Source: Candidatus Heimdallarchaeota archaeon
Lineage (GTDB): Archaea; Asgardarchaeota; Heimdallarchaeia; Heimdallarchaeales; Heimdallarchaeaceae
Length of the DNA: 64,000 nucleotides
NCBI GenBank assembly: GCA_030603365.1
Contig: JAUVXV010000010.1
Location: forward strand, 1 to 64,000
Direction: 5' to 3'
This document shows positions 4,574 to 45,311 of the stretch, piece after piece. Made by a program: the position numbers and the translations under genes. The stretch's first letter is position 1. Each line of letters opens with the position of its first letter. The notes under the pieces were generated by a model, which saw only the letters and a list, made by a program, of their open reading frames with translations, was not told the DNA's origin and did not search any database.

Positions 4574-5017
4574 ATGATGATACAGGAACAAAAAGGAGAG
4601 TTTGAACCAAACATCATAGGTTTTCTGTGTAACTGGTGTAGTTACGCAGGTGCTGATCTCGCTGGAACAAGTAGAATACAATATCCACCAAATATCAGAA
4701 TCATAAAAGTAATGTGCTCAGGTAGAGTCAATCCAATGTTTGTTGTAAATGCACTACAGCAAGGAGCAGATGGAGTTTTAATAGGTGGATGTCATCCTGG
4801 AGATTGTCACTACCAATCTGGAAATTACTTAGCAAGACGAAGAATGGCGGTATTGAAAGTATTGCTAGAGCAGCTAGGTATTGAACCAGATAGAGTAAAA
4901 ATGACATGGGTTTCAGCTGCAGAAGGGAAAAAATTTGCACAAGTTATAGAAGAGGTTACTCGCGATATTAAAAAGCTAGGTCCTATGAAAAAGATAAGGA
5001 GAGATAACGAATGGTAG
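4574..5017 (+). CDS. mvhD: MvhD/FlxD-type [2Fe-2S] hydrogenase-associated subunit
   Basis: FLCNWCSYAGAD, VMCSGRV, GCHPGDCHY and WVSAAEG motifs. ATG 4574 is preferred over TTG 4532. Confidence 0.9.
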   Translation: MMIQEQKGEFEPNIIGFLCNWCSYAGADLAGTSRIQYPPNIRIIKVMCSGRVNPMFVVNALQQGADGVLIGGCHPGDCHYQSGNYLARRRMAVLKVLLEQLGIEPDRVKMTWVSAAEGKKFAQVIEEVTRDIKKLGPMKKIRRDNEW

Positions 5018-27678: not shown

Positions 27679-28370
27679 AGCAATGCAATTTATTAAGTAG
27701 TTTTTTTAAGCGTGTATTAATGCAAAAGGAACTGTATCTAACAGAAGATAATCAGCATCAAAAGATTACTTCATGGATGAAAGAATGCAAGTTAATGAGA
27801 AAGTATGTTGCATATGAATTAGATTCGTCTAAAGCAGCATTATTAGTTCTAGACATGCAAAACTTCTTTCTAGATGAAAATAATCATGCGTTTATTCCTA
27901 CAGCTAAGAATATTATCCCCAATATTCAGAAACTAATCAAATATTTCGATAAGAAAAGTAGACCCATTATTTTTACTCAACATATTGATACTGAAGGACC
28001 CAAGGAGATGATGACAAAATGGTGGAGAGATTCCATAGTTGCTGGAAGTGAAGATTCAAATATTATCCCCCAGCTTTTCACAAATCTTGGAGAAATGGTC
28101 ACTAAAAGTAGATATAGTGCATTTGAAAAAACTGATTTAGAATCAAAATTAAGAGAAAAAGGCGTTGAACAGCTTATTATTACTGGAATAATGTCTCATT
28201 TATGTTGTGAGACAACAGCTAGAGATGCTTTTATGAAAGATTTTGAAGTATTCTTTGTTGCAGATGCCAACGCCACATACACCGAAGAACTACATATAGG
28301 AACATTAAAAGCAATATCTCACGGATTTGGTACTTGTATCCCAACTGAGGGAATTGTAAATGACAGATGA
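27675..28370 (+). CDS. Isochorismatase-family cysteine hydrolase
   Basis: LDMQNFF, K.RYSAF and G...HLCCETTARDAF motifs. The start is likely ATG 27720. Confidence 0.88.
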   Translation: MKQCNLLSSFFKRVLMQKELYLTEDNQHQKITSWMKECKLMRKYVAYELDSSKAALLVLDMQNFFLDENNHAFIPTAKNIIPNIQKLIKYFDKKSRPIIFTQHIDTEGPKEMMTKWWRDSIVAGSEDSNIIPQLFTNLGEMVTKSRYSAFEKTDLESKLREKGVEQLIITGIMSHLCCETTARDAFMKDFEVFFVADANATYTEELHIGTLKAISHGFGTCIPTEGIVNDR

Positions 28371-29289
28371 AATCTATACTGATGTAGCAATAGTGGGAGG
28401 AGGTCCTGCGTGTTGTACAGCTGCAATACAGCTGGTTAGAAATGGTATAGAAATCAAATTAATTTCTGATGATATAGGAGGAAAAATCAGGAATGCTAAT
28501 TTAATTGAAAATCTACTTGGATTTCCTAAAGGAATCAGTGGAGAAGACTATGTGAGAATTCTCAAAAATCAGTATACTGAATTCAAGATTCCTATGATCA
28601 AAGGTATTGCTGAAGAGATTAAGACATTCAGAGAGAGATTCATAATAAGAACTGCTAAGAAAAAAATTGTTTGTAATCACACAATTGTTGGAACAGGGTC
28701 TATACCAATAAGAATGGGAATAGCGAATGAAGAAGAAGCATTCAAAAAGAAAAACCTCTATTATGAAAACTACAATGCTCGTAAGAATGTTAAAGGGAAA
28801 AGTGTGCTCATTATTGGAAGTGGAGATATTGCTTATGACTATGCAATGAATCTTAAAGAAACAGCTAATCACATTTCTATTGTACAAAGAACAAAAAGGA
28901 CTAAGAGTATACCTATTTTACAGGAAAGAGTTTCAAGACAAACGAACATCAGTGTACTCACAAACATTGTTCCAGAAAAAATCAAATTTGAACATAAAAA
29001 AATAATCTTAACAGGAAGAAGAGATGACAAAATCATTCCTTTAATGGCAGATACAATTTTAGTAGCAATTGGCAGAGAACCTAATATAGGCATGTTGTCA
29101 CCAGAATTATTAGCAGCATATGAAAAAGAAGAAGATATACCAAATATCTACTACATTGGAGATGTAAAAAAGGGAAACTACAGACAAGTATCTATAGCTA
29201 TGGGAGATGGGATGAACGCAGCGATGGAAATAGTAAAAAAGACAACTGCAGAGGAAGGTAACTACGGAATCAGAAGAGAGATATGGTAA
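28360..29289 (+). CDS. FAD/NAD(P)-dependent oxidoreductase, thioredoxin-reductase-like but lacking the redox CxxC
   Basis: VGGGPA, IEN..GFP.GISG, IIGSGD.A and GDV...RQ..IA.GDG motifs; overlaps the upstream gene; C-terminus YGIRREIW. Confidence 0.85.
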   Translation: MTDEIYTDVAIVGGGPACCTAAIQLVRNGIEIKLISDDIGGKIRNANLIENLLGFPKGISGEDYVRILKNQYTEFKIPMIKGIAEEIKTFRERFIIRTAKKKIVCNHTIVGTGSIPIRMGIANEEEAFKKKNLYYENYNARKNVKGKSVLIIGSGDIAYDYAMNLKETANHISIVQRTKRTKSIPILQERVSRQTNISVLTNIVPEKIKFEHKKIILTGRRDDKIIPLMADTILVAIGREPNIGMLSPELLAAYEKEEDIPNIYYIGDVKKGNYRQVSIAMGDGMNAAMEIVKKTTAEEGNYGIRREIW

Positions 29290-29390: not shown

Positions 29391-29683
29391 TATGGAATTA
29401 CTAGGGAAGTATGAGTTAGTTTCTCCTTCAGAACCCAAAGATTCTCAATTAGATCCTTTCGGGACTCCTCCTAAACTGGCGTGGCTTCGGGTTGGCATTG
29501 TATCATTTTTGATAGATGAAAAAAGGTTTTCATACAATCATTACCAGCCTCTGGAACAGTAAACTGTTCAAAGGATTCATCTCCTAATAAAGGGCACTCA
29601 TTATCGAATCAGTCAAATCAAAGAGACGACAGATTCTCGACCTCGCACATCGAATTTAGCAAAACGATGTATTCTATACAGAA
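29391..29683 (-). ncRNA. Putative TnpB omegaRNA: structured scaffold (~29683-29414) plus guide (~29413-29391)
   Basis: Lies directly 3' of tnpB. Hairpins at 29647-29670, 29554-29569, 29516-29533 and 29501-29514, the last two enclosed by ATTGTA/TACAAT. Contains a GAAGCCACGCC..TTTAGG motif reminiscent of TnpB right ends, followed by a T8 tract (29367-29374, minus strand). Confidence 0.65.
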
Positions 29684-31210
29684 TCACTTAAGCCATTGAC
29701 CTAAGGGCAGAAAGCATATGTAATGTCGTAGCGGATGGTAGTCTTCAGTTAGTGTGTCTTTTATGTAGTTAAACTTTGGTTTCAATACATATCGAATCAA
29801 CCTCTTCCCAATATTCTTCGCTCCGTTCAGATCTGCGTCTAGTTCGTAGTTGCATTGGTTGCACTTGAACTGTCCTTGTCCTGTACGGGTAGTGTTCATC
29901 GAATTACACCTAGAACATCTTCTAGAGGTCCAACTCTCATTAACAGCTACCACTCGGTAGGATTCAAATCCATGCTTAGCTAGTTGATGTTTCAACCTAG
30001 TGATAAAGTTGCGATAGCACCATTTATGCACTTTTTTTCGCAAAGATTTGTTTCCACTACCTCGACGGTGACGATTCTGTAGATCTTTAGGATAGCCAAC
30101 AGATATAAACAGATTATAGTGTTTCTTCAACTGAAGGATGAAACCAACCAATTGGTTAACTGCATACCCCAATTCTTGTTCAGTAATAGAACGTCGTCGT
30201 CTTCGTAGACGGAAGAGTGTACTATTTAGCTGTTTAGTGTGTTGTCCATTGTTGAGACTATTGTTCAACTTCCTCTGAGTATCTTTGATCTGTCTACTAA
30301 GTTGCCATATTTTCGACTGCCTCTCCTTATCAACGATAAAACGTATTTCATCCATGATTACTCGACCAGTAGAGTTAAGCAATACTGCAACAGCTGTTTT
30401 CTTGATTCCCAAGTCTATTCCTAACACTGCAGGTGTAAGAGTAGATTGATAGCTGGGAACAGAATACTGGAGGGTAAAATTTGCCCACCACTTTCGCTCT
30501 CTGGATTTATAAACTAGTTCTAATATTTTGATATTATCTAGTTCCAGCTTCTTCTCGTGATAAGGTGAAAAAGCTAATGGTAGTCGAAGTTTTTGATGGT
30601 TTCTTTTACCAGATCGTCTAGTATCAAGAGAATCCCTTAATTCTATCCAAAGATGAGCTTCAGCATTTTTAGGTTTATGATATACCTGAAATGTACCTCT
30701 GCTTCCTGTTCCTTTGAAAAAAGTTCGGGGGGTTTTGTTCTTGAAACATGGTTTACCCAGTTCTTTCTTAGAATTGTCTTTTAGTGCTTTCCAGCTTTCG
30801 TAAGTCCAGATAGCTTTGTTTCTGCATTCTTGAAATTCATCTACTGAGCAACGAGGATAACGTTTCTTCAAGTCGTGAGGAACGGATGTTCGTAACTTGT
30901 ATTGCGTATTCTTTGAAGTAGTTAAAGTTAATTCATCCAAGAGGGAAGTATCAACTTTACCGTTCTTTCGCAGAATTCTATCCTCATTGTGGAAGATGAT
31001 GCGCAGGTAGTGTCGAATGATTCTGGTATCTCTTGCGGTTATTCGCTTCAACCTTTCACACTCTCGAACAGACATCAGTTCCGTCTTGATTCTAAGAGAA
31101 ACAGTCTCATAGAATGTAACTAATGGTGCTTGAGGAGTGTTTTTGACTTTTCCATGTGTCTTGTTTGCAGTTTGTAGTTTTTCCTGTTTATTTGTTTCTT
31201 CATTTTTCAT
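29684..31210 (-). CDS. tnpB: TnpB-family RNA-guided endonuclease (508 aa) with rearranged, Fanzor-like RuvC-II
   Basis: RuvC-I GIDLG; Gly at the canonical RuvC-II site (ISVGYP); alternative Glu in VNESWTSRRC; Zn finger CSRC..CNQC; RuvC-III DADLNGAKNI. Confidence 0.9.
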   Translation of the reverse strand: MKNEETNKQEKLQTANKTHGKVKNTPQAPLVTFYETVSLRIKTELMSVRECERLKRITARDTRIIRHYLRIIFHNEDRILRKNGKVDTSLLDELTLTTSKNTQYKLRTSVPHDLKKRYPRCSVDEFQECRNKAIWTYESWKALKDNSKKELGKPCFKNKTPRTFFKGTGSRGTFQVYHKPKNAEAHLWIELRDSLDTRRSGKRNHQKLRLPLAFSPYHEKKLELDNIKILELVYKSRERKWWANFTLQYSVPSYQSTLTPAVLGIDLGIKKTAVAVLLNSTGRVIMDEIRFIVDKERQSKIWQLSRQIKDTQRKLNNSLNNGQHTKQLNSTLFRLRRRRRSITEQELGYAVNQLVGFILQLKKHYNLFISVGYPKDLQNRHRRGSGNKSLRKKVHKWCYRNFITRLKHQLAKHGFESYRVVAVNESWTSRRCSRCNSMNTTRTGQGQFKCNQCNYELDADLNGAKNIGKRLIRYVLKPKFNYIKDTLTEDYHPLRHYICFLPLGQWLK

Positions 31211-31272
31211 GGGTTCAACTCCTTAAAAAAGTTAGAAATTTCTAAACGATGAACCTCGTTCAAATTGTCGAA

Positions 31273-31498
31273 ATCATTGGTTCGTCTTCCAGTCTCTTGC
31301 AAAACTAATAGAGGAACCAATGATAGTACTACGTGTATAATTGCATCAGGAACTCGAATAAGATTACAGAAGAACTACTAAACCTCTTTTCTTCACTCCT
31401 TTTTCCTTTTAGTGATAAGTGAGATATTAGCTGTCCACGGGGGGTGGAGCTGCAGTATTTCTCACTCATCTACGTACAAACCAAAGTTGACTATAAAA
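31273..31498 (-). promoter_or_regulatory. TATA-like box and long structured 5' leader (or left-end hairpins) of tnpB
   Basis: TTTTATA (31498-31492, minus). Hairpin AGTGAGA..TCCAC/GTGGA..TCTCACT at 31418-31466. 11-bp inverted repeat at 31273-31283/31314-31324. Confidence 0.45.
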
Positions 31499-31569
31499 AC
31501 ACCAAAGAAATTAAATTAAGATATTCTAGTTCAAATTAGGAGAAAGATTTAACAAGAATATAAAGAACT

Positions 31570-33264
31570 TTGATTGGTTTAACAATGCGAAAGAAGATAA
31601 GGGGGGTTCTGATAATTGTTCTTTTCTGCATAACAATAAATTTTCAGGAAAACAGTCATACAATTGCAAATAACAATGAAATCAATCATAGAGATTTAAC
31701 ATTGGAGTATTCTGTTCATGATCCTATAAGAATAACCAATGATCAGAATTTTACGGATTATGGCTTTTCAGGAAATGGAACAGAAGAAAGTCCATTCATT
31801 ATCGAGAATTTTAATATAACAACAACTAGTAGAATAGGAATTTATATTTACAATACAACAAAGCATTTTGTTGTTCGAAACTGTTATGTTGATGCAGAGG
31901 AGCACGGGATAGCCATCTTTTCAGTAGATGATGGTACAGCAACTGCTACAAATAATATTTGCATTAATAATTATTACTACGGCATCGCTATAAATTCTGC
32001 TCGAGGTTCTACAATTTTCAACAACACTTGTAACTATAATGATAATGGTATTTACACCGGTGATAGTGCGTATTCGAACATTCTTAATAATACTTGTAAC
32101 TATAATGATGTGGGGATACTGTGGCCTTCTTTTTATTCAATTGTAGCTAATAATACATGTAATAATAATGATGTTGGTATTTCGTTGTCTCAATCTACAG
32201 GTTCAATTGTCACTCACAATGAATGTTCAAATAATTATGATGACGGTATCAGTGGTTCTGCCTTTTTCAATCTCACGATTAACTACAACACTTGTAACAA
32301 CAATGGTTTTGATGGTATAGGTCTAGGTGGTCTTAGTAGTCATTATTCTGTAATCAACAATACTTGCAATAATAATGGCATGTATGGTATCTGGATTAAT
32401 AATGAAGGTAGTCATAAGGTTATTAACAATACTTGCAGTAATAATGCGTATGAGGGTATAATTCTCTCTGCTTGGGATCCTTCAGGTGGTTCTTTTATTG
32501 CAAACAACACCTTAACTAATTGTGGATTAACAATAAGTGAGAATTACGTTGATGCCTATCTCTCACATACAGTAGAGAATAACTGGGTAAATGGCAAAAA
32601 ACTAGGATTTTTCACTAACCTTGACTCTGAAATAATAAGTGATTCAATATATGGACAATTAATTTTAGTTAATTGTACTTTGACAACCATAAGTCATCAA
32701 ATACTTAATGCAGCTACAAAAGGGTTATTTCTCTACTCCTGTTCTTCTGTTACACTTCTAAACAATACGTGCGCTTACAACAGTCTATATAGTATTAAAA
32801 GTGAATTATGTACTAGTTTAATTATTATCAACAATACATGTAACAATAACCTTCATGGTATTTACCTTGAAGATACTGATTCTTGTCTCATAACTTACAA
32901 CTTTCTTAAAGAGAATGAGAATTATGGTGTAAATTTGAGAACTCGAACAATAGCCAAATCTGAAAATAATCTTGTTCATCATAATATTTTCTTAGACAAT
33001 AATTTGTTGGGAACATCTCAAGCTAGTGATAGTGGAACCAACAATTTGTGGTATGATTCTGTTACACAAGAAGGCAATGAATGGTCGGACTGGTCTGGAG
33101 CTGGATCTTACTCGATTGATGGTTCTGCTAATTCCGTTGATTTATATCCTCTTGGAGGACCTGTTGTAGCTGAATTTACTCAGAGCATTTTACTAGTTTT
33201 CCTATTATCTATATTCTCATTATTCCTTGTAAGAGTATTATCAAAGAAAATAAGAAAGAAATGA
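31570..33264 (+). CDS. NosD/beta-helix surface protein with C-terminal VAEF + TM + basic tail
   Basis: Repeated NNTCNNN..GI units; shares VNGKKLGFF and YGQL with the 22060 paralog. Confidence 0.85.
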   Translation: MIGLTMRKKIRGVLIIVLFCITINFQENSHTIANNNEINHRDLTLEYSVHDPIRITNDQNFTDYGFSGNGTEESPFIIENFNITTTSRIGIYIYNTTKHFVVRNCYVDAEEHGIAIFSVDDGTATATNNICINNYYYGIAINSARGSTIFNNTCNYNDNGIYTGDSAYSNILNNTCNYNDVGILWPSFYSIVANNTCNNNDVGISLSQSTGSIVTHNECSNNYDDGISGSAFFNLTINYNTCNNNGFDGIGLGGLSSHYSVINNTCNNNGMYGIWINNEGSHKVINNTCSNNAYEGIILSAWDPSGGSFIANNTLTNCGLTISENYVDAYLSHTVENNWVNGKKLGFFTNLDSEIISDSIYGQLILVNCTLTTISHQILNAATKGLFLYSCSSVTLLNNTCAYNSLYSIKSELCTSLIIINNTCNNNLHGIYLEDTDSCLITYNFLKENENYGVNLRTRTIAKSENNLVHHNIFLDNNLLGTSQASDSGTNNLWYDSVTQEGNEWSDWSGAGSYSIDGSANSVDLYPLGGPVVAEFTQSILLVFLLSIFSLFLVRVLSKKIRKK

Positions 33265-33381
33265 TTTAGAATTATTGTTTCAACTTAGACCGTTTCTTCT
33301 TTTCCATAAAATCCCCATAGAATGAGTTAGACTATATGTTTATATTGCGTTTGAAAATGAAATGGAAATGAGGTACATCAT

Positions 33382-33924
33382 ATGAACTTTATCTCTCAAG
33401 TCGAAGAAATTCTACAACAAATGGAACACATGGGGTCTTCTACACAGATACGCGTTCCACATGGAATAATGTCCTATGCAAGTACATATCAAAACCAGCT
33501 TACTTTTCTCAATAATAATACTCTCAAAAAGAATCTATCTTATCTTTTAATGCTAAATGATTTTCTTACTTGGGCAGTAAGAAGATTTTCACTTGTACCA
33601 GGTATAAAAGATATGTTATTCAAGAATATAATAGCAAATTATGGGTTTGCTGTTGAAGCAATTAACAAAAATCTAGCAAAGAAAATAACAAACAACAAGG
33701 ACATTGGTTTTGATTCCTCTTCTTCTGTTCTGAATGAAAATAACATAATTACGAAATCGATGAAAAAGGAAATTAGATGGTTATACGATATTAGAAATAA
33801 ACAACATTATGATACGCTTCCCAAAGTTGAATTTGAACATTATACATATAGGGATTGTAAGAAAGCACAAAGGATTTTTAGTCAATATATTCGTCAAATA
33901 GGCCAAAAATATGAGGGTGAATAA
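33382..33924 (+). CDS. Hypothetical helical protein, possible HEPN/Abi-like
   Basis: L.DIRNKQH (RNxxH) near the C-terminus and an E-containing helix upstream. Confidence 0.5.
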   Translation: MNFISQVEEILQQMEHMGSSTQIRVPHGIMSYASTYQNQLTFLNNNTLKKNLSYLLMLNDFLTWAVRRFSLVPGIKDMLFKNIIANYGFAVEAINKNLAKKITNNKDIGFDSSSSVLNENNIITKSMKKEIRWLYDIRNKQHYDTLPKVEFEHYTYRDCKKAQRIFSQYIRQIGQKYEGE

Positions 33925-34029
33925 TCAACAATATAGACAAAGAAGATTTTCTCGCTGAATACAGGAAAGATAAGAAAAAGGGTGATAGAAGGGTTTTTAA
34001 TCCTTCAGTCATGGCATAATTCCTGGGTC

Positions 34030-34833
34030 TTATGTTGTATAAGATTCTATGAATAAAGTTTCAAATTCTGAAAAATCCATAGTATCAATATCTAGAAACA
34101 CTTCTAAAATGCCATTATCTAGAAGTAGAACCATATCTGCAATAAGTAATTCACTATCTTCAACATATTGAGAATTCAAGTAGATATATTCCCCAATTTT
34201 GAAATTACTCTCAGGAGAAAGTTCTATTAACTTCTTACTAATGATTCCATTTGAATGAACTAAGATATTTCTAATCTCGTAGAAAATATCAATTTTCTGA
34301 AGTATTGGCGGATCTACTTCTAAATTTATATTAATTTTTTCTTTCACTCGATTGAATATTCTTGAGTAATCACCATACAGCATATCTCGAATATATTTAG
34401 AAGTTACTTCCGTGAGAATATCCTGTTTATCATTCTCGTCAGACGTCATAGAATTCTCCAAACGCTCTTTCAAAATCTCAGGTTTCTTTTCCAACCATAT
34501 TTTGAAGATGTTGTATAGATAGCTTTCAAGGATTGTATTTAAATGAACTATCATATTCTTAATTCTGAGACCATTGTATCCTGTGGACAACCATAGTTCT
34601 AAAGCTCCTGACCTGGTTTGTAATTTAGCATCAGAAGTGTACCTCTTTCCGAAAGGATTTGGCTCTGAACTACCGAATTTGGAGAGAATTACATCTATCA
34701 ACTCATCTTGAGAGTATTCAACAGACATGATGTTCAAAGTCATGATGTCAAACAAGGTTTGAGAAGCGTATGTGCTTATTTTCCTATCTCTGTTTTTCTC
34801 AATAAAATCCCTATTTTTGTACTGGTTAAACAT
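34030..34833 (-). CDS. HEPN-domain protein (putative RNase)
   Basis: ILESYL helix plus EIRNILVHSNG (Rx4H). Confidence 0.7.
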   Translation of the reverse strand: MFNQYKNRDFIEKNRDRKISTYASQTLFDIMTLNIMSVEYSQDELIDVILSKFGSSEPNPFGKRYTSDAKLQTRSGALELWLSTGYNGLRIKNMIVHLNTILESYLYNIFKIWLEKKPEILKERLENSMTSDENDKQDILTEVTSKYIRDMLYGDYSRIFNRVKEKININLEVDPPILQKIDIFYEIRNILVHSNGIISKKLIELSPESNFKIGEYIYLNSQYVEDSELLIADMVLLLDNGILEVFLDIDTMDFSEFETLFIESYTT

Positions 34834-34921
34834 AAAATCACATATTGAATTGTGTTTAGTATCTAAATTGTATGTGAGTATAATAATTTTTCATCGAAAT
34901 AAAGATGAAAACTAACTTGAC

Positions 34922-35146
34922 TCAAAGGAAATCTTCCAAATCTGATTGCTTCTTGGGACGCATGAAATCCTTCAGTTCCTTTTCTTTAAGTTCAATAAAC
35001 CATTGTTTGATGAGTTTAGAATCAGGATGAACAACAGACTTAGGAACCCAGATAGGACGGTCAGAGAGAGTATCCACAAAAGCAAGAAAAGCTTTCTCAG
35101 TCTCAAGATCAATCTTACCAAGCTTATAAGTAGAATAATCACTCAT
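34922..35146 (-). CDS. Small hypothetical protein (PIWxPKSVV family, copy 1)
   Basis: ETEKAFL..PIWVPKSVV..IKQWFI; paralog at 35564. Confidence 0.7.
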   Translation of the reverse strand: MSDYSTYKLGKIDLETEKAFLAFVDTLSDRPIWVPKSVVHPDSKLIKQWFIELKEKELKDFMRPKKQSDLEDFL

Positions 35147-35563
35147 CTTGAGAATTCTAAGAGAAATTAATATAAAAATGATTAAGAGAGATTTGAGTGT
35201 TTGTTCTTCTCATGAAAGCAATTGGAGTAATAGTGCAAGCAAATCAAAGCCTAGTTGTTCAAGAACAACATATACAACTGAGAAACTAAATACACTTATT
35301 GGTATTATAATTTTAATATTTATTTTCATTTTGAGTCTATTTTCACAAACAGCCTTTTAAGCCTTTCTAATCTCATTTTTTGTTATTTCACTTATTTTCC
35401 AAAATATAGAAAATATAGATGATTTTATATTCTATATAGAGACAAATATATCGCGAAATTTCAATTGTATATAGTATATTTCTTTGTATATTTTAAAAGG
35501 AGATATCAAAAGAGTAATTTCCATTAATCTCTCGTTTTATAGAGTTTGTTGGATAAATCTTTT

Positions 35564-35782
35564 TTACTTTCTTTTCCAATTTCTCTTGCCTTCCTTAATC
35601 TGTCTGATAAACCAGTGTTTAATTCTCCAATGTTTATCAACAACAGATTTAGGAAACCAGATGGGTTCATCAGTAAGGTCGTAAATAGTAGCATAGAAAG
35701 AGTTGGCAGATTCACCAAGAAGGTAATCAATAGAATAATCAGAAAAAGAAGAATCTTTAGGAGGAGAATCTTCTAAAACCAT
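35564..35782 (-). CDS. Small hypothetical protein (PIWxPKSVV family, copy 2)
   Basis: Within ORF 35564..35878; likely start ATG 35782 (MVLEDSPP); PIWFPKSVV..IKHWFI. Confidence 0.65.
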   Translation of the reverse strand: MVLEDSPPKDSSFSDYSIDYLLGESANSFYATIYDLTDEPIWFPKSVVDKHWRIKHWFIRQIKEGKRNWKRK

Positions 35783-35841
35783 AAACGCTTTCAGGCAAAG
35801 AAAAGGAAGAAAGTATAAAAAGACCAAGAAAAACCAAGTAT

Positions 35842-36693
35842 TTGGTAAACATGGAAATTGATACGACAGAAGAACCATTTCTCAAATATAGAGTAAAGAA
35901 ATCCACAAGAATAGATTATGCTGATACATTGGAAATTATATTAGAGAGTGATTTTACTGAAGAAGAGAAGTTTTTCTTTGTGAGATTCAACGATGTTGAT
36001 AGAAAGGTTAAGAAATTTCACAACAATGTTTGGGGATTAAAAGCTACTAGACTTTGGATAAAGGGTAAAGAAGTATATCTTGAGGAGTCAGGTAGACATG
36101 GAATCACTGAGACAATATTTTGTTCATATAAAGAGGATTGTGAAGGGATATGTAAACATAATATGGGATTAGCTAGAACTTGGGAAGTTTCTAGAGATGA
36201 TCCATTCTATGACGAGAAAATAGCTGAAACAGATAGTATACAAGGTATATTAAAAAGGATAGAAAAAGTAAAGGAGGATATAAAACCTGATGAAAGTGAG
36301 GACTATATACTTCGTGAAATGGAAAATTTGTCTATAGTTGAATTGAGATTGGAAGAAAAGAAATATATGATGAACAAAACCGTTTTCAGAAAATATCTTG
36401 AGAAGAAACTGGGATTTGAGTTCGAATATTGTCCAATAATCTCAAAAGATGATACACTTCGAATTATAGAAGGCTTTCCAGAAGAATTCTTGCTATCAGA
36501 GGAAATGATAAGATATCTTACTAGAGATAGATTTGAAACAGGGATGACTGTTTCCAGTTTAGAAAGAACAGAAGGGGAAGAGATAGAGAAAGAGGAATGG
36601 GAGTATGAAAAGAAGCAGGCGGAATTGATAGGAGATGAAGTAGAGAAAAGATTCAGGAAAGTCCTATCAGAGTTTTTCAATAGGAGAGAATAA
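35842..36693 (+). CDS. Hypothetical protein, possible SWIM-like Zn site
   Basis: CSYKEDCEGICKH motif; acidic and charged. The start is probably ATG 35851. Confidence 0.6.
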   Translation: MVNMEIDTTEEPFLKYRVKKSTRIDYADTLEIILESDFTEEEKFFFVRFNDVDRKVKKFHNNVWGLKATRLWIKGKEVYLEESGRHGITETIFCSYKEDCEGICKHNMGLARTWEVSRDDPFYDEKIAETDSIQGILKRIEKVKEDIKPDESEDYILREMENLSIVELRLEEKKYMMNKTVFRKYLEKKLGFEFEYCPIISKDDTLRIIEGFPEEFLLSEEMIRYLTRDRFETGMTVSSLERTEGEEIEKEEWEYEKKQAELIGDEVEKRFRKVLSEFFNRRE

Positions 36694-36914
36694 AAATCAC
36701 GCTTTATTGTTTAATGTGTGATTATTTCTTCTTCTATCATTTTCTCCCGATTAACTGCCCCACAATTCTTGCAAATCTGTTCTCATCTGGTTTCATCAAG
36801 AACCAAGTTTCGTTCTCCACAAACCGAACAATCAAATTCATCCATATTGATAGAATAGAGTTTAGCTTCCAGTTCTTCCTGTTCTGTAAGAGATTTAACG
36901 CATCTGGATATGCT

Positions 36915-38105
36915 CTACTCACTCTTATCGGTTCTAGTAATTTCTATATTGAATACATAATCCCCATAATAAACATCGAGTAACTCACAACCTTTGAGTT
37001 CCAATGTATGTATGTCGTTTATTATACGAGAAGGGTATTCCCAGAATTCCATAACAATGAGAAAAACGCTTTTGCAACGCTTACATTCGTGTGTTCCATT
37101 GAATGTATGCTGTTCTTCAATTCCTAGTGATTGCTCTTCACCAGAATCGGTTTGTTCCCAATTGAGATGAAATTCTTGTGTTTTTCCACAATTACAACAT
37201 TCTACAGTTGTTACAGGTTTAATCTTATAGATATCATCTTCAAACTCTCGATTATAGAAAAATCTCTTGTCAATACTTCTAAAAAAATCCATTAAATTAA
37301 CAAAAAAAGTTTCATCTTCTAACCATATATCTAATTCGTTCTTTGAGGATATCTTTTCAAGAAGTTTTTCTTGTTTTTCTTTCCATTCATCAACAAAATC
37401 TTCGAAGTTATTGTATGAAGCTTTTTTGAGAAACTTCATAATTGATTGATTAGGTTGTATGTTTATTGCAGTATACCAATTTTGAATAAATTTTGTGATT
37501 AAATTCTCTAGAATGTTTAAATTCTGGTCTTTTATTGATTTTTTATCTGGTTTCAAATGCAAATAATGTTTGTCAATTATTTCTTTAAACTCATACCAAA
37601 CATCTCCATTTCTCTCAATTTTATTAGTTAGAACTATTTGTAGATTATTTTTTTCTGTTATAACTAATTCCATGTTCTCGTGAATGTATGTCCAATATAT
37701 TGTTGGTGAGGATATAGGATCTTTTCCTACTTCTGAAGAATAATCGACAAAAAAGAAGAAAAATGGTTTACGAGATGCGCTCCATGTTTCAATATAGGTT
37801 TCTTCTATTGGAAAAAGAATTTTACCATCTGATTTTTTATATTCCTCTGTCGTAGATGATTTTATTTGACCAGAAAAATCATATTTAGTAGAATTCGCTA
37901 CTGAATCGAAATATATGTAGTTTCTATATTTGTTTACGCCTTTCTCCTCTGGCATGTGACCGATAATGTCAGTTCCTGTATCAATAAATGGATACTTCTC
38001 TATAAATATACAATGAGGAGAAATTAACTGACATGACAAATGTTTGTATGAAACTTCCTCTTGTATTTTTGTATATAGCATAATTTTACTCAGTGATTTT
38101 CCCAT
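36915..38105 (-). CDS. DUF4365-like PD-(D/E)xK nuclease fused to a C-terminal Zn ribbon
   Basis: DTGTDIIG...QIKSS (D-G-D...QxK); CNC..CKRC and WEYP motifs. Confidence 0.65.
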   Translation of the reverse strand: MGKSLSKIMLYTKIQEEVSYKHLSCQLISPHCIFIEKYPFIDTGTDIIGHMPEEKGVNKYRNYIYFDSVANSTKYDFSGQIKSSTTEEYKKSDGKILFPIEETYIETWSASRKPFFFFFVDYSSEVGKDPISSPTIYWTYIHENMELVITEKNNLQIVLTNKIERNGDVWYEFKEIIDKHYLHLKPDKKSIKDQNLNILENLITKFIQNWYTAINIQPNQSIMKFLKKASYNNFEDFVDEWKEKQEKLLEKISSKNELDIWLEDETFFVNLMDFFRSIDKRFFYNREFEDDIYKIKPVTTVECCNCGKTQEFHLNWEQTDSGEEQSLGIEEQHTFNGTHECKRCKSVFLIVMEFWEYPSRIINDIHTLELKGCELLDVYYGDYVFNIEITRTDKSE

Positions 38106-38192
38106 TTTGAATCACTTGTATTAACTAAATAAATAGTTAAAAACTCCACAGATTTTTGTGTTCTCCGTTCTCTCCCTAAGAAGAATTACTAC

Positions 38193-40601
38193 TCACGTTA
38201 TTTCCATTTTCAGTAACTGATTAGCTAATTCCCGTTGCGCACAGAGGACGACTTTTTCTTCATTATGAAGTGTTCTTTCCTTCAGTACTTCTTTCAATAA
38301 ATCTTCTAGAGAAGATGATTTTTCCCCAAGTATTGCTTGTTCTATCTCATGTCTGGAGTATCTCTTAATCAGTAGAGAACAAGCATTTCTTGCATTTTTT
38401 CTTATTATTGAGCATTCTTTCTCGTTTTTACTCAACGAACAATAGGTTATACAGACATCATCAGGTTTGAACTTGTGATTAAGAAACGAACTGTTTTGTT
38501 CCTTTGGTTTTTGCCTTTCAGCATTTGTTTTTTTCTCTTTTTGGTAGTTCTTTTTTGAAGTCTGGTTCGACTGAGTAAGTTTGTCGTGAAGAGTTGTTCT
38601 CATTTCTATAAAACTACTAAACAAGAGAGGATAGAGTGAAGAAGAGTATTTTCTTTTAAGAAACAATAGATAGGTCTGATAATCCAAGGGTTTGCAGTTG
38701 AATTCCTTTGTAATTATCTCCAAAGCCTTATTTTCTCCATCTTTCCAGATAAAACAATGACGAATAGGTAGTTGTTGGAGTCGTTCATAATGAAACTCAT
38801 GTAAGTTGAGAGCTTTAGCTAGTTTCTCTGTTTCTTGACCTGAACGAAAAACAATCTTTGTAGAAGAATTAGCATGAACAATATTACTTACATTATGCCA
38901 CATTTGGGTACAGAAGATATGACCAATACCTAAGCTTCTACCTAGCAGAATGTTATTTTCAGCTGTGATCAAAGAAGCCGAACTCTGTGTTCGATAAATT
39001 TTTGGGATAATATTAATCGCTTCTTCTAAAACTAGAACGTAACGAAGCTTATTGGTGAGATCTTTTGCGGCAGCAAACCTATAGAAGAGTTTCAGAATCA
39101 AGTTACAGACAAGATAAATGTCTGAAGGTCTTGCTGCTCTTCGCTGGAATTGGCTGAGATCTAGGATAATAGTCTTCCCTTGATCCATTACATCAAAATT
39201 CAACGTTGTTTGAGACACTCCTAAGATTTCAAAATTACTAGGGTTAAAAATGAAATTCAGTCTATTTAACACAGCATCTAGCGTGTTCTGGATAGTAGTA
39301 ACTCGTTTATTTTTCTTAGCCAAAGTAATAAGGTGCTCTGCAAAAACCTCTAATGTCCTCTTTTCTTCTTTGTGAGTGAGAAAAAGAGCTGTTTCAAAAA
39401 GGTTCTTCATAGATGGACTAAAATTCTGATCAGTAGAAGCAATCATTTCTTCAATAACTAGAAGTGTTCCTCTAACGTCATCCTCATCTTCGGTGTCAAA
39501 GAGATTAACGCAAAGAGGATGTGGACTACCGATAGTAAAGATTTCCACATTGGGTTCTGTAGCAAAAGTCATTGCATATTCTCCTTTAATATCAAAAACC
39601 AAACTTGGCACATTACTATGGATAAGGCTTTGGAGAATACCGCTGACAAATCTTGTCTTCCCTCTCCCTATCATTCCATAGATTTCAACGTTGTAGAGCA
39701 GTTCACCTATACTGATAGAGATTTCATCATCAAGTAATTCATTTATGTATTCGTATCCAAGAAGGATAGATTCTCCTTGCTTGAACACTGTTCTTGGTTT
39801 AGATAGAACAGCTGTAGTTATCTCTTTATAATCTAAAGGAATGTGGAAATACTTTGGTACATCATCAAGTAAAACTATTTCATACTCTTGAACTGAAGAT
39901 GTATTCTGCTTCTTTGACATATTTGTTGCGTTCAAGAATTTCCTGATTGAGAAGTTATCATCAGATAAAGCTGAGAATCTAACGTAAAATTCACCATTAA
40001 TATGTTTCAAGTTTTGAACACTAATCATTAAACTAACATCAGGACAACGTTCAAGAGCTATAGTCTTGTACATCATGTCCATTACATCTATCTCTGTATC
40101 GACCAAAGCAGAGTAATCTAGAGGTATTCTCTTTTTCTTCTTTCTTAGAAAACGAAGAAGAAGTTTAGATTGTTTAGAATTAAGGATATTGAAGTGGCCT
40201 TCATAGTTTGTAGAAAGAGCGTTGGTAACAAGTAGTAATTCTTTTTCTAATTTTTGTAAAATCCTCTTCTTGGAGAAGCCTTGTTTAGAAAGAAGGATGT
40301 AAAGACTCGTTCTCGACTGATATTTGGAGATTACTATCTGGATTTTTTCAACATTCAAAGCAACTAAAGTACTAAAACTGGTATGAATTCCTTCTACTTC
40401 TTCTGAATTGAGTTTAATATTGCAATTAATATGTTTGATAAGTAAAACTACCTTACATCTGTAAAATGGTAGAAGGATTTTTCTCTGTAAAAAAAACTCA
40501 TTGTTTCTGGTTCTGATATAAGGAAACGAAAGAACAAGCAAAAGAATGACAAAAATAGAACTGAACAAGAAAGTTAACAATACTATATCCATAGCTATCA
40601 C
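38193..40601 (-). CDS. HerA/FtsK/VirB4-like P-loop ATPase with N-terminal TM helix
   Basis: Walker A GMIGRGKT, FDIKGEY, Walker B VLEEA and GRSLG...TQ motifs. Confidence 0.85.
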   Translation of the reverse strand: MIAMDIVLLTFLFSSIFVILLLVLSFPYIRTRNNEFFLQRKILLPFYRCKVVLLIKHINCNIKLNSEEVEGIHTSFSTLVALNVEKIQIVISKYQSRTSLYILLSKQGFSKKRILQKLEKELLLVTNALSTNYEGHFNILNSKQSKLLLRFLRKKKKRIPLDYSALVDTEIDVMDMMYKTIALERCPDVSLMISVQNLKHINGEFYVRFSALSDDNFSIRKFLNATNMSKKQNTSSVQEYEIVLLDDVPKYFHIPLDYKEITTAVLSKPRTVFKQGESILLGYEYINELLDDEISISIGELLYNVEIYGMIGRGKTRFVSGILQSLIHSNVPSLVFDIKGEYAMTFATEPNVEIFTIGSPHPLCVNLFDTEDEDDVRGTLLVIEEMIASTDQNFSPSMKNLFETALFLTHKEEKRTLEVFAEHLITLAKKNKRVTTIQNTLDAVLNRLNFIFNPSNFEILGVSQTTLNFDVMDQGKTIILDLSQFQRRAARPSDIYLVCNLILKLFYRFAAAKDLTNKLRYVLVLEEAINIIPKIYRTQSSASLITAENNILLGRSLGIGHIFCTQMWHNVSNIVHANSSTKIVFRSGQETEKLAKALNLHEFHYERLQQLPIRHCFIWKDGENKALEIITKEFNCKPLDYQTYLLFLKRKYSSSLYPLLFSSFIEMRTTLHDKLTQSNQTSKKNYQKEKKTNAERQKPKEQNSSFLNHKFKPDDVCITYCSLSKNEKECSIIRKNARNACSLLIKRYSRHEIEQAILGEKSSSLEDLLKEVLKERTLHNEEKVVLCAQRELANQLLKMEIT

Positions 40602-40695
40602 TCGTGCTTTATATAAAGTTTAAACTCACAGAATAAACAAAAAAACCATATAAAAACACATCAAAGTATTAGCAAAAACCTCAGAAATAGACAAA

Positions 40696-41697
40696 TCATT
40701 TTCCATATCTAAATTGTGTAATTTCCTCAATAATGGCCAAATACTTAATACATGATTGACTAATTTCCATAAACAGAAATGCTAAGTGTATATCTTTTAA
40801 AACAGTATTCAAGATATTCGTAAATGCTTTCTTCATCTCCGAACTTGGCTCTGTCCTTTTTTTCTTATCTTTATTATCAGAGAAATCAAATTTCACAATA
40901 GAATCGATTATGTAATCTTTTTTCTCCTTTGCTTTTTTGTATTGTTTTCGAAATTTACTTCTTAGTTTTTCCAATTTTGGCAAAGGATTCGCATGTGCTA
41001 TAGAGTTTCGTGTTTCTAAAAATAGGTCAAAGGCAGCTTTATCATTTATGCCTTTATAATCAAAGTAAAAACCATCTATTTGTTCAGGTAACTTATCACC
41101 CATCACTTTAAGTAGGAATTTTGTTTTGTCTTTTATTCCACCTTTTTTGGGATATCCATCTAGCTTCTCTCTTTCTTCAAGAGGAATCTTCTTCTTGAGA
41201 AGTTTCTCAAAGTATTCATCAAGATAAACATCAATATAGGCATATAAAGCAAGAATATAATATGCAGAACAACGTTGAACAATTTTCAACTCTTGCATTC
41301 CTTTTTTGGATAATACATCTTCATTCTTCTTATCTTCTGCTGAACCAAATACAGGGAAAATATGTGGTCTCAGAGTCAAGATTGCTTCAGTAATCTCATG
41401 ATTTTCTTTTTCAGTATCATTTTTAAGAAACATCTCAGTCCCCTCATCTATCAGCTTGTTGTAATAGGGCTCAAGTTTTGGTCTCTTGTTTACTATTGAT
41501 ACAAGTAGTATGATTGCTTCTGTAAAAATCGTAAGATCAGCACATTTGCTTTCAAGTTTCTTTCCAAATTTAGATTCTAGTACTTTATCCAAAAGCGTGA
41601 AACCAAAGTATTTTGATTTGTTAGTTAACTCCTCTGTTTCAATAAGCGCTAATTTCTGACTGATAATACAATGAACATCGTCTTGTGATAAGTCCAT
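40696..41697 (-). CDS. HEPN-domain protein (putative RNase)
   Basis: LYAYIDVYL helix plus ETRNSIAH (Rx4H). Confidence 0.6.
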   Translation of the reverse strand: MDLSQDDVHCIISQKLALIETEELTNKSKYFGFTLLDKVLESKFGKKLESKCADLTIFTEAIILLVSIVNKRPKLEPYYNKLIDEGTEMFLKNDTEKENHEITEAILTLRPHIFPVFGSAEDKKNEDVLSKKGMQELKIVQRCSAYYILALYAYIDVYLDEYFEKLLKKKIPLEEREKLDGYPKKGGIKDKTKFLLKVMGDKLPEQIDGFYFDYKGINDKAAFDLFLETRNSIAHANPLPKLEKLRSKFRKQYKKAKEKKDYIIDSIVKFDFSDNKDKKKRTEPSSEMKKAFTNILNTVLKDIHLAFLFMEISQSCIKYLAIIEEITQFRYGK

Positions 41698-41797
41698 ATG
41701 ATAGAAGGCACTTAAAGAGATATAATTGTGTCTATATCAAGGTAAATTAGCACTTATTTGGAGTTCATACTTGAATATGAAAACTGAATTTGCTAGT

Positions 41798-42499
41798 TCA
41801 TTTATTGATAAACATTATTTCCTCATTTGAATACCGTTTCTCTAGCCTATTTCTATATTCCCTAAACAAGTCTCTTGTTTCTAATTGGCAGATTACGATA
41901 ATAATTCGTCCATAAAGCTCAATATTTCTGTCCACTTGACCACTTAACCTATCAAAATCTTCTCGTTTAGGATTCTTCTTAAGTTCAATTGGGATAGAGT
42001 CATTAACTAAGATGTCTACTTGTGTTGGTCCTGCTTCATCTTTAACATTGAATCCATACTTAAGTTCTAATAATGATCTTAGTTCTGTTTGATATCCTTC
42101 TTCTGTTTTATACCTACGAGCAGGTATCCACTTTTGAATTATTATCTCTAAAGGTATTGTTTCTTCTTCGATTACTTCTTGCTCTTTCTCAACGAGTTTC
42201 TCCTCTGTTTTTTCTAATTCTTTTAGAGTTTGCTTTATATTTAGTTTTAAATCATCTACTATTCTATTCCAGAGTGTGTCTTTTGAACCAGAAATAGGTA
42301 AATCAAGCTCCCAACACAAATCAGACAGATGATGCTTGTAAAAATATGCTGTTAAATCATCAAGCTCGAAGTCCTTACAGGAAAGGATACGAAGGATAAT
42401 ATCCTCTTTCTTACCAGATTTATCTAAACCTAAATTTTTTGCTAAATCTTGTACTTCTTCTTTGTAGAGATGTTTCTTCATAAAATCAAAGACATTCAT
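41798..42499 (-). CDS. Tandem SAP-like DNA-binding repeats fused to a PD-(D/E)xK nuclease
   Basis: Two K..L..L...LxL..SG.K..L..RI repeats; E..YQ.EL...VDILV...IPIELK...GQ. Confidence 0.72.
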   Translation of the reverse strand: MNVFDFMKKHLYKEEVQDLAKNLGLDKSGKKEDIILRILSCKDFELDDLTAYFYKHHLSDLCWELDLPISGSKDTLWNRIVDDLKLNIKQTLKELEKTEEKLVEKEQEVIEEETIPLEIIIQKWIPARRYKTEEGYQTELRSLLELKYGFNVKDEAGPTQVDILVNDSIPIELKKNPKREDFDRLSGQVDRNIELYGRIIIVICQLETRDLFREYRNRLEKRYSNEEIMFINK

Positions 42500-42616
42500 A
42501 GTAAACCAAGAATATCTTAAGAAAGCAAAGTATTAGTATTTTTCGACAGAATTTAGAGGGGATATTGACTGAGTTTTATCAACATGCTTTAAGAACTCAA
42601 ATGTAGTATTATCGGA

Positions 42617-44206
42617 TTGAAGAGTCTGTTTCTCATGTCTGAAAAAAAGCCTAAATCTAAATCTATTTCAGATTTTCCTGAACTAGTTAAGGAATGGCAT
42701 CCTACAAAAAACGGGGATTTGAAACCTGAGAGCGTTTCTTTTGGTTCTAAAGAAGACATATGGTGGAAATGTCTAGAAGGACCAGATCATGAGTGGTTAA
42801 CTAAACCCAATTATAGAACTGGCGGAAAAAAAATAACAGGATGTCCTTTTTGTGCAGGAAAAAAAGTTTCTGTGACTAACTCTTTGGCTATTAATTTTCC
42901 AGAAATAGCTAAAGAGTGGCATCCAACAAAAAACTTAGGGAAAACCCCAGATGAAGTTCTAATGAAATCAAGTAAAGAAATTTGGTGGCAATGTAGAGTT
43001 AACTCTAAGCATAATTGGGTAGCAAAAGTAAATGACAGAACTGGAGTGAATAAATCAGGATGTCCTTATTGTTCTGGAAGATTGGTTTTGGAAGAAGATT
43101 CTTTAGCTGAATTATATCCAGAAATTATCAAAGAATGGCATCCAACAAAAAATACAAATCTAAATCCAAATGAATTATCCCCAGGTTCAAAGAAAAAGGC
43201 TTATTGGATATGCGATAAAGGACCAGATCATATTTGGAAGGCAGTGATAGACAGCAGAATAAGAGGGAATAGGAAATGCCCCTATTGTGCAAATAAAAAG
43301 GTGTCAGTGACGAATTCATTAGCCACTAAATTTCCAGAAATAGCCAAGGAATGGCATCCTACTATGAATAGAGATCTAACACCAAATAAAGTTGTACCAG
43401 GATCTGATAAATTAATCTGGTGGCAATGTTCTCAAAACTCTGAACATATTTGGGACACCAAAATTCATGAAAGAACTGGATCTAAAAAAACAGGATGTCC
43501 GATATGCTCACATAGAAGATTATCTCCTTATAACTCTCTGAGAACACTCTATCCAGAAATAGCTAAAGAGTGGCATCCAACAAAAAATTCTGGACTAACT
43601 TCAGAGATGGTGATAGGAGGTTCTCACAGAGAGGTATGGTGGAAATGCTCAAAAAATTCTGATCATACATGGATAGCTAAGATAAATAATCGGGTTCATA
43701 ACAAAAGTGGATGTCCATTTTGTAACTTATCTGGTGGTTTGGAAATAATAGGATATTTATGGGAAAGAATATGTCACAGAATTGCCAGATACTTATTGGA
43801 AGGGAAGAAATGGAAATGGCAACCGAAAATTGATACTCCAGAAATAGATGAAAGAAATTGGATATTTCCTGAGATACTTATAGAAAATCTTGATGGAACT
43901 TTAGAAATTATAGAAATAAAAAAATCGCCCTCGGCAATAACAAACAAAGACACATCCATTTATCCACTATATGCGGCTGAAGTAAAATTTTGGTGTCTAT
44001 CTGTTGAATTTTCTGATAATTCGGACTTAGCTGAGAGTTTTGAATTTATCTCAAGCAACGAGTTAGTTCAGCAATTAAAAAACAAGATTAATGAGGAAAA
44101 TAAGAAGGGGATTTATAGGATAATTAAAGATATTGAAAGACTTAAAGATGGAAAATTTTCATCTCAACAAAAACTTCTTACAGATTTTATTTCTATAGAT
44201 GATTAA
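42617..44206 (+). CDS. Zinc-ribbon (DUF4379-like) five-repeat protein with a probable C-terminal PD-(D/E)xK-like domain
   Basis: Five EWHPTxN...WW.C....H.W......R....GCP.C units; C-terminal FPEI...IIEIKKS. The start is likely ATG 42635. Confidence 0.8.
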   Translation: MKSLFLMSEKKPKSKSISDFPELVKEWHPTKNGDLKPESVSFGSKEDIWWKCLEGPDHEWLTKPNYRTGGKKITGCPFCAGKKVSVTNSLAINFPEIAKEWHPTKNLGKTPDEVLMKSSKEIWWQCRVNSKHNWVAKVNDRTGVNKSGCPYCSGRLVLEEDSLAELYPEIIKEWHPTKNTNLNPNELSPGSKKKAYWICDKGPDHIWKAVIDSRIRGNRKCPYCANKKVSVTNSLATKFPEIAKEWHPTMNRDLTPNKVVPGSDKLIWWQCSQNSEHIWDTKIHERTGSKKTGCPICSHRRLSPYNSLRTLYPEIAKEWHPTKNSGLTSEMVIGGSHREVWWKCSKNSDHTWIAKINNRVHNKSGCPFCNLSGGLEIIGYLWERICHRIARYLLEGKKWKWQPKIDTPEIDERNWIFPEILIENLDGTLEIIEIKKSPSAITNKDTSIYPLYAAEVKFWCLSVEFSDNSDLAESFEFISSNELVQQLKNKINEENKKGIYRIIKDIERLKDGKFSSQQKLLTDFISIDD

Positions 44207-44332
44207 TATTTGGAAGTTTACTCATTTAGTAGTCAGAAAAAGCTAAAAAAGAACTAAAAATGAAGGAGTTCGAATTAAATTCTAGATTTAAGCAGTCTCT
44301 GATAAACACAAATAATACTAACTTTCATAACA

Positions 44333-44340
44333 TTTTTAAG
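44333..44340 (+). promoter_or_regulatory. TATA-like box supplied by the island end for the radical SAM gene
   Basis: TTTTTAAG lies ~26 nt upstream of ATG 44367, the spacing expected for a leaderless archaeal transcript. Confidence 0.45.
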
Positions 44341-44366
44341 AAGACAATGATTTCTTGAAATGACTG

Positions 44367-45311
44367 ATGATGAAGATCTTGGGGAAGTATGGTAAAGACG
44401 ATTTAGCTATACTTTATATCGCGAAACATGATGGCAAAATAGTAGAATTTGTCGAAAGTTTACAACCCCCTATTCCCCGAGAGAAAAAGTGGGTTCTGAT
44501 AATATCTACAATGTATGGATGCCCAGTAGGATGTCTAATGTGTGATGCAGGAGAATACTATCATGGGAATGTCTCCGCAGATGGGATGCTAAAGGAAATT
44601 GATTTTATGATTAAAAACCGCTTTCCTGATGGTAAAATTCCTATAAACAAATTCAAAATCCAATTTGCCCGTATGGGAGAACCAACCCTTAATGAACATG
44701 TTCTAGAGGTTATTAAAACCCTACCTGAGAGATATGAAGCAGCAGGTTTGATGCCTTGTATTAGTACAGTAGCTCCTAATGGTTGTGAAAAGTTTCTAGA
44801 TGAACTAATAAAGATTAAAGATGAGCTCTTTTCAGATGGTAATTTTCAGATACAGTTCTCCATCCATTCAACTGATGATAATGAAAGACACAAGTGGATG
44901 ACTAAGAATATTTGGTCTTTAAAGAAAATTGCGGAATTCGGAAACAGGTGGTTTAAAGAGGGAGATAGGAAAGTGACGCTCAATTTTGCAGTAGCAGAGG
45001 ATTCCAAAATAGATCCAAAAGTAGTTAAAGAACTTTTTAACCCAAAAAAATACTGGATCAAATTAACTCCTATTAACCCAACCAATAAAGCTGTTAATAA
45101 TAAGATTCAAAGTGGAATTACTGAAGACAACACTGAATACTTTCCACTAGTACAAGAATTTCGTAATCTGGGATTTGATGCAGCTATTAGTATTGGTGAA
45201 TGGGAGGAAAATGATATTGGAACTAATTGTGGTCAATTTGCAACACAATACAAAGATGGCAAGGTTGGAATCAAGGATAGCTATACTACCACAAATTACA
45301 CTATGGATTAG
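44367..45311 (+). CDS. Radical SAM enzyme, RlmN/Cfr-like
   Basis: CPVGCLMC (CxxxCxxC), RMGEP, QFSIHS and C-terminal CGQ motifs. Confidence 0.85.
   Translation: MMKILGKYGKDDLAILYIAKHDGKIVEFVESLQPPIPREKKWVLIISTMYGCPVGCLMCDAGEYYHGNVSADGMLKEIDFMIKNRFPDGKIPINKFKIQFARMGEPTLNEHVLEVIKTLPERYEAAGLMPCISTVAPNGCEKFLDELIKIKDELFSDGNFQIQFSIHSTDDNERHKWMTKNIWSLKKIAEFGNRWFKEGDRKVTLNFAVAEDSKIDPKVVKELFNPKKYWIKLTPINPTNKAVNNKIQSGITEDNTEYFPLVQEFRNLGFDAAISIGEWEENDIGTNCGQFATQYKDGKVGIKDSYTTTNYTMD

Follow-up and report, generated by a model that had tools for sequence, protein, structure and literature searches.

[quoted passage not shown] The locus raised two questions: whether this rearranged active site ties an Asgard archaeal protein to the Fanzors of eukaryotes, and what role a TnpB with no adjacent transposase might have where it lies. 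A first, sequence-only reading had called the site Fanzor-type and the enzyme probably active. The analysis below assigns the protein to a broad prokaryotic class of rearranged TnpBs and places its gene at the end of a genomic island of ~15 kb, beside a predicted guide that matches the gene start interrupted by the island.

The TnpB gene and its flanking regions

The gene occupies 29684..31210 on the minus strand and is an open reading frame of 508 aa (P0001). Its product matched Pfam family PF07282 (Cas12f1-like TNB domain) with an E value of 2.4e-15 and 56.8 bits, against a cut-off of 26.3, and scored 99.3 bits with the NCBIfam guided_TnpB model, slightly below the cut-off of 100. Together with the family-model match, the WED/REC regions and a split RuvC domain with a zinc finger place the 508-aa ORF in the TnpB superfamily. 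On the minus strand, the RuvC-I aspartate is D266 (codon 30413-30415), the glycine at the canonical RuvC-II position is G372 in the motif FISVGYP (codon 30095-30097), the alternative glutamate (Ealt) is E425 in VNESWTS (codon 29936-29938), the CxxC..CxxC zinc finger spans 29852-29917 (C432, C435, C450, and C453), and the RuvC-III aspartate is D460 (codon 29831-29833). Every named homolog belonged to Heimdall-, Thor-, or Prometh-archaeota, which supports the Asgard host that had been thought likely. Judged from its sequence, the gene at 29684-31210 is an intact TnpB gene of a Heimdall-group Asgard archaeon, accompanied by a predicted guide-RNA gene.

The same genome encodes one intact paralog, on contig 14, which is 64% identical and in which both motifs are also present. 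Decayed pieces of this TnpB family were found at C15:84560-84847 and C1:486804-486998; one of the two is interrupted by a pair of in-frame stops. Two intact copies at 64% identity, together with two fragments, give no sign of recent transposition. No Y1 TnpA and no Cas1 were present in the genome, which is 89% complete, and no CRISPR-like array was found near tnpB, in agreement with the earlier observation that the gene has no adjacent TnpA or array. The locus thus has neither the adjacent array nor the cas genes of a type V effector, and it has neither the adjacent TnpA nor the multi-copy derivatives with shared ends of an IS200/IS605 or IS607 element, the single intact paralog being diverged. 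The genome encodes five serine recombinases, none of which is linked to this tnpB. Three of the five, on contigs 14 and 16 (L087-L089), are encoded ~1.8 kb away from other TnpB-like genes, which are open frames of 644-678 aa, in an IS607-like arrangement. Across the genome, the TnpB zinc-ribbon domain was matched 18 times, and some of these matches belong to a multi-copy family with frames of ~425 aa.

A conserved 5' leader (31211..31515, minus strand), followed by a GGAG ribosome-binding site, precedes the ORF. It contains a TATA-like box (31491-31503, minus strand) and two conserved hairpins (about 31413-31470 and 31273-31324, minus strand), one with a 19-bp stem. Its fold has 41 predicted pairs, with compensatory changes in 7. 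In relatives, the leader starts directly past the stop codon of a gene encoding a HerA-like ATPase. In these relatives, the T-C-A-T conserved at the 5' border was considered as a TAM-like target but turned out to be the last codons and stop codon of the HerA-like gene.

Downstream of tnpB, a predicted omegaRNA scaffold (29411..29708, minus strand) starts in the last tnpB codons and ends in an invariant AACTCAT at 29411. Across 13 related loci, DNA conservation ran ~273 nt beyond the tnpB stop codon and stopped abruptly after this heptamer, and the sequences past 29411 were unrelated among the 13 loci. The consensus fold of the scaffold comprised 68 pairs, with 96% of cells paired and compensatory changes in 20 pairs. 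Shuffled controls gave 7.9 +/- 2.0 compensatory pairs, and controls slid by one to three columns gave at most 9. An invariant six-base stem joins 29595-29601 to the 3' end of the scaffold, directly ahead of the variable flank. An Rfam search of both tnpB flanks returned no family match. The conservation and covariation of this ~300-nt 3' region are as expected of a TnpB omegaRNA scaffold with its guide outside, and we predict that function for it.

The rearranged RuvC site and its distribution

AsCas12f was aligned with a profile of 41 Asgard homologs (33-79% identity), which included Heimdall, Thor, and Loki relatives. G372 fell opposite the canonical RuvC-II glutamate, so the glycine that had been read from FISVGYP is backed by an alignment and not by inspection alone. 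E425, previously picked out as a glutamate ahead of a TS-x-x-C zinc finger, aligned with the proline of D-P-x-Y-T-S, which in canonical enzymes lies just ahead of the zinc finger. [quoted passage not shown] Values of dN/dS between tnpB orthologs (0.19-0.22) indicated purifying selection. The alternative glutamate is spaced as E425-x6-C432, and all spacings lie inside the published Ealt ranges (pattern of PMC10711439). The RuvC-I motif reads DLG (D266-L-G), and nearly all homologs have D-L/F/I-G at this position.

An AlphaFold2 model built on the 41-homolog alignment had a mean pLDDT of 84.4 and a pTM of 0.74. In the model, G372 lies inside strand 366-373 (beta-4), and E425 comes immediately after strand 420-424 (beta-5). 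As modeled, this topology is the beta-4 to beta-5 shift of rearranged TnpBs (PMC10691335), and the catalytic triad most likely consists of D266 (beta-1), E425 (after beta-5), and D460, with glycine at the beta-4 position. The N-terminal tail, which is rich in lysine and glutamate, was predicted to be disordered (pLDDT 42-57). A Foldseek search with the model ranked Cas12f and TnpB first (probability 1.00, target-normalized TM 0.63-0.66), and the mimivirus Fanzor2 (ApmFanzor2) appeared at rank 16.

Active sites of this kind have been described in several studies. In all Fanzors and in a prokaryotic 'TnpB2' set, the canonical glutamate is replaced by glycine or proline, and an alternative glutamate lies ~45 residues downstream (Jiang et al. 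2023, PMC10530073). The same authors found that the E467A substitution abolishes cleavage by ApmFanzor and that the archaeal TvTnpB of Thermoplasma volcanium, which has a rearranged site, cuts DNA in a TAM-dependent manner. The alternative glutamate was defined as lying six residues ahead of the zinc finger by Yoon et al. (2023, PMC10711439), and branches with a rearranged RuvC-II (RIIr), some nearly exclusive to archaea, were catalogued by Altae-Tran et al. (2023, PMC10691335). By its motif pattern, which fits exactly, the rearrangement studied here is that of the Ealt, 'TnpB2', or RIIr class. It shares with this class, which has archaeal hosts, the glycine at the canonical glutamate position, the glutamate six residues before the zinc finger, two intact aspartates, a D-hydrophobic-G RuvC-I motif, and a predicted 3' omegaRNA. 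Unlike most members of the class, which have 400-450 aa, it has 508 aa, the difference coming from the N-terminal tail and from REC insertions; the protein is indeed longer than a typical TnpB, as had been remarked. It also differs in having no adjoining Y1 or serine TnpA and in its location at one end of an island of several genes. The invariant triad, purifying selection, and conserved omegaRNA are the grounds on which we infer catalysis: the TnpB is likely an active nuclease, in keeping with the earlier proposal.

The fold (target-normalized TM 0.54-0.66) and the zinc finger are shared with the TnpB of ISDra2 (IS200/IS605) and with Cas12f, as are a 3' guide RNA with its guide outside the conserved scaffold and a proposed homing role. 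The present locus differs from canonical IS200/IS605 TnpB and Cas12f in the position of the catalytic glutamate and in having no Y1 TnpA and no CRISPR array.

Two database searches yielded 268 homologs, with a recognizable zinc finger in 212, and Ealt was present in 195 of these 212. Forms with the canonical glutamate occurred solely among the weakest matches, at E values above about 1e-14. On an 88-protein FastTree, which was unrooted, quickly built, and inclusive of both trait columns, the Ealt/canonical state changed once. The count and the single state change indicate that, within the sampled neighborhood, the relocated glutamate is a trait inherited within a broad prokaryotic class. They also make it very unlikely that the rearrangement arose independently within Asgard TnpBs, a convergence that the sequence-only reading had put forward. 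Alteration of RuvC-II in two major clades and eight large branches does imply several origins across the superfamily (PMC10691335), but the canonical forms near this protein are confined to its most distant matches.

A special tie of this clade to Fanzors was likewise not supported by the sequence comparisons. Several features could suggest one: the relocated glutamate common to Fanzors and this TnpB, the disordered Lys/Glu-rich tail, and the Asgard archaeon as host. Fanzor1 and Fanzor2 (SpuFz1, PDB 8GKH; ApmFz2, 9B0L) also share its TnpB fold and nearly its triad spacing, which is D-159-E-35-D here versus D324-143-E467-34-D501 in the Fanzor2 cryo-EM structure. However, Fanzors and cyanobacterial pro-Fanzors are defined by Ealt together with DPG in RuvC-I, a combination described as exceedingly rare (Yoon et al., PMC10711439), whereas the motif here is DLG. 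DPG and Ealt occurred together in 1 of the 212 homologs, and that one was distant (E about 4e-14). Fanzors are found in eukaryotes and giant viruses, and pro-Fanzors in a cyanobacterial IS607 context; the present gene has a prokaryotic host, Asgard relatives, no adjacent serine recombinase, and no eukaryotic transposon context. Its named homologs are all archaeal, and its atlas neighbors belong to Thorarchaeota, Chloroflexota, and Thermoplasmatota. Cas12f and TnpB are the best matches in both structure and sequence, with Fanzor1 and Fanzor2 no nearer than Cas12f by either measure, and published trees place the origin of Fanzors in other TnpB clades (PMC10711439, PMC10530073). We consider it extremely unlikely that the protein represents a progenitor of Fanzors, or an enzyme specifically akin to them, with a bearing on a vertical origin of eukaryotic Fanzors. 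The 'Fanzor-type' description therefore stands in part. The G / E-x6-CxxC arrangement is real, but it defines a large prokaryotic class, and RuvC-I has DLG, not DPG. Since the DPG hallmark is absent, Fanzor origins become no more testable through this TnpB, and the bearing on those origins suggested earlier is lost.

The ~15-kb island and its insertion site

Far from being an isolated copy, the tnpB gene closes one end of a ~15-kb island (about 29411-44391) as its terminal module, and the tnpB scaffold forms the right border of the island. An oxidoreductase gene (28360-29289) directly adjoins a radical-SAM gene in 10 of 11 same-genus relatives; within the window, about 15 kb separate the oxidoreductase gene from the radical-SAM gene (44367 onward). 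The guide-position flank (29391..29410, minus strand), directly 3' of the scaffold, is the antisense of the first seven ancestral codons of the radical-SAM gene (plus strand 29392-29413). When 29392-29413 was joined to the sequence from 44392 onward, the composite aligned with the uninterrupted gene start of an island-free relative (L097). Because the guide-position DNA and the sequence after 44391 both match this start, the island must have split the radical-SAM gene in codon 8. The far end of the island (44367-44391) supplies a replacement start for the gene, with the start codon at 44367, and presumably also brings its promoter.

A 10-nt direct repeat, CATACTTCCC, is present at both borders on the minus strand. 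Its right copy (29404..29413) comprises the last 3 nt of the scaffold and the first 7 nt of the host flank, and its left copy (44382..44391) lies inside the radical-SAM 5' end supplied by the island. Within the available sequence, no border direct repeats of this sort were found in five related islands. No integrase or transposase was recognized among the island genes. A 'guide-escaping' recoding of the oxidoreductase 3' end, also considered, was ruled out, as the island-free L097 has the same gene end and spacer.

The island cargo includes a HerA/FtsK-like ATPase gene, HEPN-like genes, and PD-(D/E)xK-like (nuclease-like) genes. The ATPase gene (38193..40601, minus strand) was recognized by Pfam DUF87 (4.8e-12) and by PADLOC HerA models and lies upstream of tnpB on the same strand. 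ATPases of this type, of ~800-950 aa, are recurrent partners of this TnpB clade in that position and orientation. Homologs stand immediately upstream of TnpB in three relatives (L013, L014, and L017); in L007/L095 the homolog is truncated, and in the closest relative, L091, it lies 9.6 kb upstream. A 63-aa ATPase remnant is found upstream of the tnpB paralog on contig 14, and several ATPase-TnpB pairs that have diverged occur together in the genome of one relative. The presence of multiple, diverged ATPase copies inside single genomes suggests a family of ATPase-plus-TnpB islands (L013, L014, L017, and L091-L095).

Two paralogous small proteins encoded on the minus strand of the island (34922-35146 and 35564-35878) share the motif P-I-W-x-P-K-S-V-V and have homologs in related islands. 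One relative (G017, locus L108) carries a different insertion at the same radical-SAM site, and this insertion also encodes P-I-W-x-P-K-S-V-V homologs. Elsewhere in the window, the start of the contig (1-127) is a perfect 12-nt tandem repeat of 10.6 copies.

Possible roles of the TnpB at the island border

We assign a probability of about 0.82 to the reading that an intact Ealt TnpB, with a ~300-nt omegaRNA and a guide to the split gene start, forms the right terminus of the island and serves in its retention. The omegaRNA would be transcribed from the ~300 nt between the end of the ORF and 29411, and ~20 nt of flanking DNA beyond 29411 would act as the guide. The TnpB RNP, presumably with use of a TAM, would cut island-free copies of the target site, and cleavage would cause the island to be retained or copied in through recombination. 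A homing role is the most likely one by analogy with IS200/IS605 TnpBs, for which homing has been shown. One feature of the sequence appears to count against active homing: CAT is found just 5' of the guide match in both the scaffold end and the target, and an active RNP would need some means of avoiding self-cleavage. The 10-nt border repeat would fit equally well with integration by a site-specific recombinase acting in trans.

A TnpB that has lost its nuclease activity or been repurposed, whether as a TldR-like RNA-guided binder or repressor or as a toxin or defense component of the island, seems highly improbable at this locus. Such a function would suit a gene that has no transposase and shares its island with HEPN-like, PD-(D/E)xK-like, and HerA-like genes, and a guide matching the 5' end of a host gene could be used by a repressor too. 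The guide, however, matches the ancestral start that the island interrupted, and no gene begins with that sequence any longer. Whereas TldRs have lost catalytic residues or have a truncated RuvC, the triad and zinc finger here show no variation among relatives from the Heimdall, Thor, and Loki groups. In two closed Heimdallarchaeum genomes, moreover, the same family occurs in multiple copies and is clearly mobile.

These two genomes harbor a sister clade of TnpB-only units, each ~1.9 kb long, with at least 10 copies in one genome and at least 7 in the other (L028-L036, L049, L056-L058, L067-L068, L073, L077-L078, and L084). The units have sharp borders, with CATG at the left end and TCATG at the right end, and their flanks differ.

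Two groups of Asgard TnpBs have been linked to a Cas1 homolog (Cas1H-Asgard-1/2; Altae-Tran et al., PMC10691335). Thorarchaeota relatives of the present protein are 33-36% identical to it and share its Ealt triad. Their conserved 3' region is closed, ~400 nt downstream, by the GTTCACTCA motif published for the Cas1-linked groups, which resembles the AACTCAT found here. This resemblance suggests that the two sequences mark homologous right ends. The exact form of GTTCACTCA was not found near this tnpB, and no Cas1 gene neighbors it. Thor-type loci also carry a divergently transcribed conserved protein of >900 aa, which was not found in the genome studied here. In the loci L037-L076 (e.g., L040:1-2724 and 4693-4701), this protein contains a PD-(D/E)xK-like D...ExK motif, and the TnpB ORF reads through the scaffold. 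The >900-aa protein had no Pfam or PDB match, and its identification as aCas1 was accordingly not supported.

The finding at the active site itself adds little, since relocated-Glu TnpBs, archaeal ones included, had already been catalogued in 2023, when their activity was demonstrated as well. The suggestion that the protein is a candidate compact editor holds in an ordinary sense, given its 508 aa and ~300-nt scaffold. More useful is the omegaRNA/TnpB pair, which is sharply bounded, comes from an Asgard archaeon, and could be tested for nuclease activity. The surroundings of the TnpB are more interesting than its active site: with ten empty-site relatives and a guide that corresponds to the interrupted target, this is an unusually well-resolved case of a TnpB that forms the margin of a large cargo island.

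A broader proposal, which we offer tentatively and regard as possible but doubtful, is that TnpB-omegaRNA is the homing and retention module for a family of HerA-encoding cargo islands that lack a recombinase and occur in Heimdall-group archaea. The RNP would cut island-free alleles, and repair of the cut alleles from an occupied copy would allow the island to spread or persist. If true, this would extend TnpB-driven homing from insertion sequences of ~2 kb to multi-gene islands of 15 kb. The island described here bears on how TnpB elements that lack a transposase move or persist.
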